Shown one piece after another: positions 9,225 through 45,452 of a stretch of 64,000 bases of DNA. The position numbers and the translations under genes were made by a program. The stretch is from Octopus sinensis. Its lineage: Eukaryota. Position 1 is the stretch's first letter. Every line of letters begins with the position of its first letter. Location of the stretch: the NCBI RefSeq assembly GCF_006345805.1, contig NC_042997.1, forward strand, positions 190,154,001 through 190,218,000. The letters are read 5' to 3'. The notes beneath the pieces were generated by a model that made no database searches, was not told the origin of the DNA, and saw only the letters and a program-made list of their open reading frames with translations.

Positions 9225-9637
9225 TATTTCTTTACTGCCCACAAGGGGCTAAACATAGAGGGGACAAACAAGGACAGACAAAAAGATTAAGTCGATTACA
9301 TCGACCCAGTGTGAAACTGGTACTTTATTTATCGACCCCGAAAGGATGAAAGGCAAAATCGATCTCGGCAGAATTTGAACTCAGAACGTAACGACAGACG
9401 AAATACCTATTTCTTTACTACCCACAAGGGGCTAAACATAGAGGGGACAAACAAGGACAGACGGACATATTAAGTCGATTACATCGACCCCAGTGTGAAA
9501 CTGGTACTTTATTTATCGACCCCGAAAGGATGAAAGGCAAAGTCGACCTCGGCGGAATTTGAACTCAGAACGTAACGGCAGACGAAATACCGCTAAGCAT
9601 TTCGCCCGGCGCGCTAACGTTTCTGCCAGCTCGCCGC
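9225..9637 (-). mobile_element. SINE family A, nested dimer
   Basis: Two tails and bodies, one head; flanking ~20 bp imperfect TSD aatgt.ca.ctacaatatat. Confidence 0.88.
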
Positions 9638-17324: not shown

Positions 17325-17338
17325 TTATATATATAATA

Positions 17339-17422
<84 letters not shown>

Positions 17423-17438
17423 ATATATATATAATATA

Positions 17439-17484
<46 letters not shown>

Positions 17485-17510
17485 ATATATTATATATATA
17501 TATATTTATT

Positions 17511-17559
<49 letters not shown>

Positions 17560-17608
17560 ATTAATATATTATATATATATTATTTATATATATATATATT
17601 TATATTAT

Positions 17609-17663
<55 letters not shown>

Positions 17664-17667
17664 AATA

Positions 17668-17700
<33 letters not shown>

Positions 17701-18020
17701 ATATATATATATATATAGTTTATATATATATATATATTTATATATTATTATATATATATATTTATATATATATTATATATATTTATCATATATATAATAT
17801 ATAATATATTTATATATATATATTATATATATATAATTTAATATCTATTACATAAGATAACTATAATATATTTATAATATATATCTATATATATCTATAT
17901 CTATATTATATTTATATATATATATCATATAATATATATATATATATATATATTATTTATATATATACATATATATATATAATATATATATTATAATATA
18001 TATATATATAATATATATAA
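17325..18020. repeat. Long imperfect (TA)n tract
   Basis: ~700 bp almost pure A/T alternation; one of many (TA)n, (CA)n and (ACAT)n tracts in the window. Confidence 0.95.
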
Positions 18021-18219
18021 GCAATTAAGGACAACTACTTACTAAGGAAAACTTAACGACATTGTCAGGTAGGATATGCGTAAACTCATAAGATAAAAAT
18101 TTAGAAAATGTATTTCTTTTTTTTCATTGAACTTTAATTTAATATATAGCAGGGCTTAATGTATTAGAAATAAATACAACATGCCCCGCGGGTGGTCGTT
18201 GTTTATTTATAATACATTC

Positions 18220-18267
18220 AGGCCTGCTGATGATTACGTAAGTATGAAATCACTGTGATACAGGTCT
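18220..18267 (+). ncRNA. Type I hammerhead ribozyme motif (H2)
   Basis: AGGCCTG-CTGATGA-T-TAC-gtaa-GTA-T-GAA-ATCA-ctg-TGAT-A-CAGGTCT: intact core, stems I-III, predicted cleavage after 18260; in a ~370 bp insert between long (TA)n tracts. Confidence 0.8.
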
Positions 18268-18408
18268 ATATTTTTAAATGTCTTACTTTGAAAAATTGCA
18301 TTCGGTGGATTGTAATATTTTTGGTAGAATACTGATTGTCCTCTTAGCGTTTGGCATGTATGTATAATGCCTTCTAGCATGTATGTAAATGCCCTCTATA
18401 TATAAATT

Positions 18409-18493
<85 letters not shown>

Positions 18494-18502
18494 ATATATA
18501 TT

Positions 18503-18624
<122 letters not shown>

Positions 18625-18645
18625 ATATATATATTATATATATTA

Positions 18646-18714
<69 letters not shown>

Positions 18715-23754: not shown

Positions 23755-23927
23755 TTTGTCTTGGTATAAAAGATGGTTTGTCTTGGTATAAAAGATGGTT
23801 TGTCTTGGTATAAAAGATTTGTCTTGGTATAAAAGATGGTTTGTCTTGGTATAAAAGATGGTTTGTCTTGGTATAAAAGATGGTTTGTCTTGGTATAAAA
23901 GATGGTTTGTCTTGGTATAAAAGATGG
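23755..23927 (+). repeat. 22 bp tandem repeat x8
   Basis: (tttgtcttggtataaaagatgg)8, one unit 3 bp short. Confidence 0.95.
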
Positions 23928-43896: not shown

Positions 43897-44541
43897 TATC
43901 ATACAGGTTGAAGATGGGAAGAATGGCTTGCCTTTGCAAATACTGATAGGGCACAGAAGGTGTGTCAATAGCCAGCTGGATGAGGTGTCCTTCTATGTCT
44001 ACAAGCTACAGTAGCATCTACCCTTAAGGGTTAGCCACATTTAAGTGGCAAATATACTTCACGATATATATGAATATATATTATTTTATATATACATATA
44101 TATATTAATATATATATATCTATCTATATATATATATTAATATATATATCAATATATATATATATAGATATATATATATATATACGTTTAAATATTTGTT
44201 GTGCAAGATTTTTTATGTGAAGTCGTGTGTTGAAACAGATATTGTTATATTTCGGAATGGTCATTTATATCATATTGCCGAAATAAGATTAAGATTAATG
44301 TAAAAAATAAATATCACTGAAGCAAAATAACATCAAATATATAGTGCGTGTGTTTTTATTGGCTAAACTGGCAATATGACCATTCCGAAATATAACAATA
44401 TATATATATATATTATATTAAATTAGAGATAAAACCACTATTAGGCAAATCATACAATGAAAAACTTAAGCCAATACATAAGATTAATTAATTTATATTA
44501 TTTAAATATATATCAAAATTATTAAAAAAGATAATTAATAT

Positions 44542-44610
44542 AACACTACGATCGTTTCATAGCTGTTCAATTCTTAAAATTTTCGAGTTACAGTCATTCT
44601 TCAGGTGGTT
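44542..44610 (-). ncRNA. Minimal type I hammerhead motif (H6, inverted copy)
   Basis: Minus: AACCAC-CTGAAGA-ATGACTGT...ACAGCTAT-GAA-ACGATCGT-A-GTGTT. Confidence 0.75.
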
Positions 44611-44710
44611 TAAATATTTAACTTGGCGAGGTTTAATCAATGAGTTCATTTATTAAACCTCACCAAGTTAAATGAGTTCATTGATTAAACCTCGCCAAGT
44701 TAAATATTTA

Positions 44711-44777
44711 AACCACCTGAAGATGACTGTAACTCGAAAATTTTAAGATTGAACAGCCATGAAACGATCGTAGTGTT
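44711..44777 (+). ncRNA. Minimal type I hammerhead motif (H6, forward copy)
   Basis: AACCAC-CTGAAGA-TGACTGT...ACAGCCAT-GAA-ACGATCGT-A-GTGTT. Confidence 0.75.
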
Positions 44778-44996
44778 ATATTAATTATCTTTTTTAATAA
44801 TTTTGATATATATTTAAATAATATAAATTAATTAATCTTATGTATTGGCTTAAGTTTTTCATTGTATGATTTGCCTAATAGTGGTTTTATCTCTAATTTA
44901 ATATAATATAATATTTTACTATAAAATTGGATTCAATCCTAAATCTGATTTTTCCCTGTAAGTTTGGATTTATTCCCTAATATTTTATTATTAATA

Positions 44997-45040
<44 letters not shown>

Positions 45041-45260
45041 ATATATATATATATATATACAATATATATATATATATATATAATATATATATATACAAAT
45101 ATATATATGTTCAACTTATAAATAAGGGCAAAGAAAAAACTTCCAATGCCAAATATGCCGAGAATAGTCTTTGAATCGTCACTAACCACAAATAATACAT
45201 CACTATAATAAGCACGCGTCTCGAAGAAAGGTGACAGAAATTTCTAAAAATATTCCGTTA

Positions 45261-45321
45261 TTACCGAATCGGTCCGATTTCTGAGTTAATCCATTAAGAC
45301 CTTTCTCGTCATCAGCAGTAA
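45261..45321 (-). ncRNA. Type I hammerhead motif (H7)
   Basis: Minus: TTACTG-CTGATGA-C-GAG...CTC-A-GAA-ATCGGACCGAT-T-CGGTAA; in a ~300 bp insert between (TA)n. Confidence 0.7.
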
Positions 45322-45452
45322 ATACATTATTCATAAGTTGTTTATAATCTTCACCTTAAAACGTATTTTTTTAATATGATGATAAATTTTTTGACAATTT
45401 TATCCTATATTAGATGTATATATATATCTTTATATGTATATATATGTATATA

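Follow-up and report, generated by a model that had tools for sequence, protein, structure and literature searches.

A two-armed hammerhead retrozyme copy in a TA microsatellite of Octopus sinensis, likely inserted by a Penelope-like enzyme

Introduction

A complete hammerhead ribozyme motif lies in a short insert between two long TA tracts of the Octopus sinensis genome, which raises the question of how it came to be there and whether it acts alone. We analysed the surrounding 64,000 nucleotides (assembly GCF_006345805.1, contig NC_042997.1, positions 190,154,001 to 190,218,000 of the forward strand), hereafter the window, and searched the 2.72 Gb genome for related sequences.

Penelope-like elements (PLEs) have already been proposed as partners of retrozymes (Cervera and de la Pena 2020, PMC7229834; Li, Clavereau and Pollet 2026, 10.64898/2026.07.22.740005), and in the text available for both sources the enzyme that moves animal retrozymes is argued from co-occurrence and pLTR similarity. 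In the available part of Frangieh et al. 2024 (PMC11167929), a PLE protein nicks AT-rich DNA and extends both strands, starting at two internal RNA sites that bound a tail, and hammerhead cleavage is unnecessary for it in vitro. Tandem or inverted inserts, 30-40-bp tails and a microsatellite bias are given as PLE hallmarks in that of Craig et al. 2021 (PMC8557442).

Results

A type I hammerhead in the window

The motif, a type I hammerhead on the forward strand at 18220-18267, was identified by sequence inspection, a descriptor scan, variant alignment and folding. It comprises, all on the forward strand, a 7-bp stem I (AGGCCUG/CAGGUCU, 18220-18226 with 18261-18267, one G·U), the core CUGAUGA (18227-18233), a U·U mismatch at the base of stem II (U18234 opposite U18245), a 3-bp stem II (UAC/GUA) with a GUAA loop (18235-18244), GAAA (18246-18249), a palindromic stem III (AUCA/UGAU, 18249-18259) and an AUA triplet (18258-18260) with the predicted cut 3' of A18260. 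Every element named in a first-pass annotation of the window, including the mismatch closing stem II, was found in place, and the TA tracts put there at about 700 and 280 bp measured 694 and 282 bp.

Two places in the window matched a descriptor of this quality, against none in 100 block-wise dinucleotide shuffles, so the motif is more than a chance occurrence. Rfam gave no match for the whole window at the gathering threshold, and the cmsearch check suggested earlier, run with the Rfam hammerhead families on 17900-18500 up to E = 10, returned none. Judged from sequence, the assignment to type I hammerheads is supported by the core CUGANGA, GAAA, an NUH triplet and three helices with stem I open. 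The G10.1-C11.1 pair closing stem II is absent, being U·U in the window's subfamily; this does not bar membership, since the axolotl hammerhead HHR_Amex2 also has a U·U at the base of helix II and cleaves (22% in an hour as a monomer, much better as a dimer; PMC7229834, available text).

The insert consists of two inverted arms

The left target tract (17326-18019, 694 bp, 98% A+T) and the right target tract (18397-18678, 282 bp, 100% A+T), both delimited by TRF, enclose two inverted arms of a 480-bp unit, a layout that had been missed when the insert was described simply as about 370 bp long. The left arm, on the reverse strand, has two pieces. Piece 1 (18020-18149, unit 142-271) ends against the TA tract at a fixed site, site B (TTAATTGCT); it corresponds to the tail of about 125 nt between site B and a second fixed site, A, and aligned to the unit of locus L017 with 114 matches, 8 substitutions, 8 deleted and 8 inserted bases. 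Piece 2 (18148-18189, unit 405-448; 36 matches, 10 differences), recognised also by folding, is a degenerate antisense copy of the hammerhead's 5' flank together with the start of stem I, and is predicted to fold back on 18194-18230. The right arm, on the forward strand (18194-18408, unit 414-480 followed by 1-154; 214 matches, 1 substitution, 6 single-base deletions), carries the sole hammerhead of the insert and ends against the TA tract at site A, between ATGCCCTC and TATATATAAATT. Directly upstream of site A lies an internal 23-bp duplication (18354-18398, forward strand; TRF and alignment) that is missing from a 459-bp subfamily described below.

The insert has no open frame of at least 110 aa, PLE proteins found no match in the window by tblastn, and the features of an autonomous PLE (an open frame with RT and GIY-YIG) were present neither in the insert nor in the window. 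By its sequence, the window copy reads as a truncated two-arm insert that follows the A/B end rule set out below.

The copy is rich in indels, which may be assembly noise, and the two-arm layout itself could be an assembly artefact of a noisy TA region, as the 6 single-base deletions of the right arm and the 16 indel bases of the left resemble uncorrected long reads. We consider this hardly credible, because the same layout (B left, A right) and the same end points recur in dozens of loci with clean sequence and the hammerhead stretch is free of differences.

The insert belongs to a large family of tandem units

The search for further copies proposed earlier was rewarding. The window insert gave 153 matches in the 40 candidates scored out of 1,086, and a 30-mer of the hammerhead core had 1,355 exact copies in the genome, against 0 for the reversed control. 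The motif, described as isolated, is so only locally, between its TA tracts; genome-wide, the insert is a member of a large and dispersed family. Its copies are arranged as tandem arrays of an AT-rich, non-coding unit with a period of about 480 bp. A further 786 related copies carry A or G at position 10.1, among them the 459-bp subfamily, whose unit is 80% identical and whose stem II is closed by the canonical G-C; another subfamily, 73% identical, counts 790 copies with a longer stem II that is also closed by U·U. Forward-strand junction patterns numbered 338 for site A and 465 for site B (reverse-strand counts are inflated by a variable gap), from which we estimate roughly 700-900 insertions. 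The unit was also present in sequencing runs of four organisms.

The unit folds far more strongly than its shuffles (z -7.5, 0 of 100). In the circular fold, stem I is predicted with a probability of 0.88-0.99 and stems II and III are weak; since energy models leave out tertiary contacts, this is no proof of inactivity.

With a tandem unit of a few hundred bp, each carrying a type I hammerhead, the family is classified by its sequence as a non-LTR retrozyme, a known class of which it forms a new family; the window copy holds only part of one unit. PLEs co-occur with it in the genome. In common with metazoan non-LTR retrozymes, as described in the available text of PMC7229834 and 10.64898/2026.07.22.740005, it has one type I hammerhead per short, low-GC and apparently non-coding tandem unit, thousands of dispersed copies, a highly self-paired unit and PLEs in the same genome. 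The unit of 459-480 nt compares with about 170-400 in the former source and 51-972 in the latter.

The hammerhead varies in concert and its stem III is palindromic

The 32 variants analysed, out of 77, comprise that of the window, 2 singletons and 29 of the 30 that occurred more than once; they were chosen by the core motif and are mutually related, hence they represent few independent events. The core was unchanged except at N7. Over the set, 97.6% of cells were paired, against 21-43% in slid controls, and two pairs were changed on both sides. One stem I pair had both partners exchanged (C-G/U-A), and the 10.1-11.1 pair covaried among G-C, A-U and G·U (G-C in 12 variants, A-U in 9, G·U in 1, unpaired in 10); single changes were G·U/G-C and A-U/G·U. 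By eye, two more stem I pairs were changed on both sides in the 73% subfamily. The fold, whose loss in other copies would have spoken against the first-pass reading, is thus conserved. Since subfamilies differ in this closing pair (U·U, A-U, G·U or G-C), the U·U is a subfamily trait that has been widely amplified, and not local decay.

Stem III reads AUCAC-N1-2-GUGAU in all 32 variants and never varies. As a hairpin it is predicted at about -0.2 kcal/mol, against -12.1 kcal/mol as a self-duplex, and its fifth pair is unable to close a 1-nt loop in the monomer. A palindromic helix III/loop 3 in tandem copies is the design of dimer-acting type I hammerheads (PMC4209133, available text). The octopus family shares with these a palindromic stem III in tandem copies, whereas in its palindrome 5 bp enclose 1-2 nt, which would also allow the monomer a weak helix of 4 bp, and stem II of the window's subfamily is short (3-4 bp). 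We think it probable that the family cleaves mainly as a dimer.

A rival reading, which takes up the monomeric activity suggested in the first-pass annotation, has the window copy as a functional monomeric ribozyme cleaving a host read-through transcript. Its core is perfect, stem I is predicted with a probability of 0.86-0.99 when 18195-18290 or 18160-18300 is folded alone, and the U·U of HHR_Amex2 is compatible with monomer cleavage. However, stem III is palindromic, and the predicted probability of stem I fell to 0.00 for 18140-18300 or the whole insert, once 18140-18160 was included and the antisense arm could block it. Moreover, the hammerhead of the window is exactly the commonest variant of the family (98 of the 150 complete motifs found in loci selected for the window's subfamily), hence it bears no mark of locus-specific selection. 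The claim that it is the best candidate for monomeric activity was not borne out, and both the read-through explanation and a working monomer in the present context are unlikely.

Nearly all two-arm inserts end at one A and one B site

Most inserts of the family consist of two arms pointing outward, tails outermost, in (TA)n. Their outer ends lie at site A (unit about 143-155) or site B (about 271-281), some 125 nt apart. In loci L031-L070, (TA)n followed 68 of 70 A or B ends, compared with 7.8% of the window's 34-nt stretches. Site A contains TATATATA, a match to the TA target; site B is without TA homology. Among the two-arm inserts of 81 loci, 54 of 57 combined A with B, none had two A or two B ends, and 3 had one unclassified end, where 40 of the 81 loci had been picked by an A or B junction pattern so that one end was fixed by selection. 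In 30 consecutive loci of contig C1 chosen by the hammerhead alone, all 21 two-arm inserts were A+B, two of them being a duplicated pair. The 81 loci also contained 29 unpaired arms (17 A, 11 B, 1 other), and the 459-bp subfamily uses the same sites. Arms run for up to 13 units head to tail without coding sequence, and the inner junctions overlapped by 1-11 nt in 38 of 57 inserts (approximate, from BLAST ends).

Twin priming by L1 leaves 5' inversions with microhomology at the junction. Mobilisation by a LINE in this manner on linear RNA would account for the inversions with junction microhomology seen here and for the match of site A to the target over TATATATA. Nevertheless, poly(A) or a LINE-type tail is absent, and twin priming gives adjacent pieces of one RNA, whereas both of the present arms can be multi-unit, with unrelated 5' breakpoints. 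Site B is used in each two-arm insert despite its lack of TA homology, and PLEs of the same genome obey the same two-site rule. A LINE origin is therefore very improbable.

Several further observations concern these ends and arms. A predicted hairpin precedes each of sites A and B (unit 136-154 and 260-278), and TGYCCT...TAAATT stands in register at both, a tentative resemblance; the end pairs of PLEs are likewise short imperfect direct repeats. At L032 and L066, whole two-arm inserts were tandemly duplicated with intervening TA or flank. At L229:1271-2973, a retrozyme arm was interrupted by a 1.7-kb insertion resembling a LINE 5' region (ORF1-like, by eye), flanked on either side by a short duplicated stretch of the unit.

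Both arms of an insert share one source

Divergence was 0.44% between opposite arms and 0.56% between laps within an arm, against 2.9% between different loci (227 laps, 41 loci). Rare variants occurred in all laps in 21 cases (18 across both arms), in one lap in 68 and in some laps in 19. As opposite arms differ so little compared with different loci, and as 18 rare variants were found in every lap of both arms, both arms of an insert come from one source, which is not always one monomer circle. Long arrays were homogeneous in 4 of 13 cases, and 9 of 13 had variants in only some laps. Two haplotypes were present in both arms at L060, L220 and L231, and L062 showed a period-2 pattern. The mixed haplotypes of these 9 arrays rule out a single monomer circle as the sole template; copying may instead have involved multimers, multimer circles or jumps between monomers. 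Gene conversion could be a partial source of the homogeneity of arms. An idea that the U·U subfamily forms longer arrays was dropped (median 1,269 bp in 31 loci vs 954 bp in 23 loci, p = 0.11).

PLEs of the same genome obey a two-site rule

One PLE family, with open frames of 811 aa, is abundant (150 scored of 3,139 candidates; RVT_1 with E 2e-7, above cutoff; GIY-YIG weak, E 0.006). It inserts into (TA)n with two ends about 35-40 nt apart, and 6 of 6 two-arm loci (14 fetched) had one tailed and one tail-less arm. The same end rule held in 4 of 4 two-arm loci (25 fetched) of a second PLE family, about 55% identical in protein. Both families (L091-L104; L279-L303) carry a minimal hammerhead-like pLTR motif, UUGAAAA or UUGAAGA ... 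GAAACCGGUA, with U for C3 and located about 70-170 nt upstream of the ends.

Compared with EN+ PLEs, as far as described in the available text of PMC8557442, PMC3846280 and PMC11167929, the octopus retrozyme likewise forms tandem and inverted 5'-truncated copies in AT-rich or microsatellite targets, with an optional tail at one end, two internal start sites and a hammerhead upstream of the ends. It differs in having no ORF, a tail of about 125 nt that is threefold the 30-40 nt of PLEs, and a full three-helix hammerhead where that of PLEs is minimal. As in a non-autonomous PLE derivative, the tandem or inverted insert is tailed on one arm only in the 54 A+B inserts of 57, whereas pLTR homology was lacking for the two PLE families compared. 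BLAST found none between the unit and the pLTR of the 811-aa family, and 66 of 300 shuffles scored as well; for the second family, 226 of 300 did. With no significant similarity to the pLTR of the two families examined, neither was recognised as the cognate PLE. A shared 14-mer, TCACCCAYGTGCTT, was discarded as a cognate sign because it did no better than shuffles.

Among the loci screened for PLE sequence joined to arms, two were found, L062 and L232. In L062, an old PLE fragment is joined directly to an arm, and the case is ambiguous. L232 (G000:C1:64838500-64843400) is the one chimera: arm 1 is a 5'-truncated, frameshifted and tailed copy of the second PLE family, and arm 2 has 132 nt of the 3' UTR of the same PLE (99% identical), then 3 retrozyme laps to site A. 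From its sequence, the locus reads as a template switch within one event; a deletion that fused two adjacent inserts could look the same. A short scrambled filler (L232:2783-2954) lies at its inner junction. PLE sequence beside the arrays of L017, L023, L047, L051, L056 and L284 was rejected as joined, as TA or other sequence lies between and the two read as neighbouring insertions.

The unit might instead be the detached pLTR of another autonomous PLE, the arrays being truncated PLE ends or products of local unequal crossing-over that have no RNA cycle of their own. In the available text of 10.64898/2026.07.22.740005, 24 of 57 Xenopus retrozyme families are terminally homologous to known repeats, nearly all of them PLEs, and Li et al. 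2026 favour local amplification; the insertion ends here also act like pLTR ends. Against this stand the non-coding arms of up to 13 units head to tail, the lack of any tblastn match to PLE in the window, the restriction of joined PLE sequence to L062 and L232, and the different, minimal U3-type motifs of the two PLE families examined. In addition, local tandem growth of one arm gives no multi-unit inverted arms with shared private variants. A detached pLTR is thus an improbable source, and a retrozyme mobilised by a PLE is, with considerable confidence, the explanation that we prefer.

Transcript-like contigs and possible editing

Eight of 19 sequencing runs were examined, all of which were contigs; 6 of these 8 were only presumed to be RNA, and no silent stretch served as control. 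A 511-nt contig of run X11 and the back-joints seen at the unit boundary would be expected of a circle and of a tandem transcript alike. Clustered A>G changes on the hammerhead strand were noted at L017:1140-1159 and 1567 (unit 53-72 and 480) in contigs of two guessed-RNA runs, X1 and X12 (organism A, two studies), which had A>G also at the A of the cleavage site. Genomic laps had 0 G in about 230 at unit 53-72 and 1 in 207 at unit 480. The changes could be A-to-I editing, which might block cleavage, or they may mark a subfamily of organism A. Re-insertion of edited RNA was rejected, as none of the 21 template-level rare variants was A>G.

Other elements in the window

A second type I hammerhead lies on the reverse strand at 45110-45405 (core at 45315), with a long stem II and a palindromic stem III, ATCGG-A-CCGAT. 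Its family is older, non-coding, roughly 560 bp long and 80-90% identical, has a two-arm layout in (TA)n and gave 71 matches among those scored of 1,570 candidates. A resemblance of site A to this family was no better than shuffles. At 44390-44990, a fold-back insert between TA tracts belongs to another repeated family (116 matches among those scored of 1,416 candidates); its arms differ by a tail of about 76 nt, and it has CTGAAGA...GAAA at 44717 (forward) and 44604 (reverse) without a clear stem I. TRF also reported a two-copy 184-bp tandem of a SINE-like repeat at 9225-9591 and an 8-copy 22-bp minisatellite at 23755-23927.

Discussion

The window insert is most probably a short two-armed retrozyme copy, likely pasted into a TA microsatellite by a PLE reverse transcriptase-endonuclease acting in trans. 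In the proposed course, arrays would be transcribed on the hammerhead strand. Pairing of two hammerheads through their palindromic stem III would allow slow cleavage into monomers, multimers and probably circles. Both strands of (TA)n would be nicked by a PLE protein that is probably dimeric; one cDNA would be primed from site A and its partner from site B, presumably with one subunit per site, and both would be templated by RNA of a single source array. The cDNAs would reach 0.1 to 13 units each and meet head to head, where 1-11 nt of microhomology often bridge the joint. The window copy would be such a product, and as its single hammerhead is predicted to be masked by its own antisense arm, it is probably a dead end.

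In its most specific form, this proposal states that a PLE dimer binds a non-coding hammerhead RNA without detectable PLE sequence and primes each nicked strand at its own fixed site (one A and one B, 125 nt apart, never two alike), copying the unit for at most 13 rounds, with an occasional change of template between retrozyme and PLE RNA within a single event. We lean towards this version, if only slightly.

The available text of PMC7229834 and of 10.64898/2026.07.22.740005 was not found to describe metazoan retrozymes with a strict (TA)n target, a pair of inverted arms or two fixed ends, and the words "inverted" and "microsatellite" do not occur in the main text of the former. Unlike the Xenopus families of the latter source, the octopus unit lacks pLTR homology to the two PLE families compared. 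It has the sequence features of metazoan retrozymes, while its cleavage and circular RNA are predictions here. A literature search, outside of the supplements, found nothing on PLE-type ends of retrozyme insertions, and it found no report of cephalopod retrozymes, which the supplements of PMC7229834 and the preprint may list; the main text of a 2026 octopus repeat annotation (PMC13282606) does not use "ribozyme", "hammerhead" or "retrozyme".

The single window copy is of little importance on its own, and the chief interest lies in the quantified A+B rule and the chimera. The insertion footprint likely ties this retrozyme family to PLE enzymes: a PLE two-site signature in nearly all two-arm inserts, together with an insert that is half PLE, is more direct evidence for PLE mobilisation than co-occurrence and pLTR similarity. 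The insertion ends predict exactly where synthesis should start in an in vitro assay, and the rule of one A and one B also constrains the PLE mechanism itself. If the proposal is true, the insertions would be a genomic record of retrozyme movement, and the retrozyme would be a minimal, structure-mimicking substrate with which the two-site mechanism of PLEs and the question of a circular template become directly testable.
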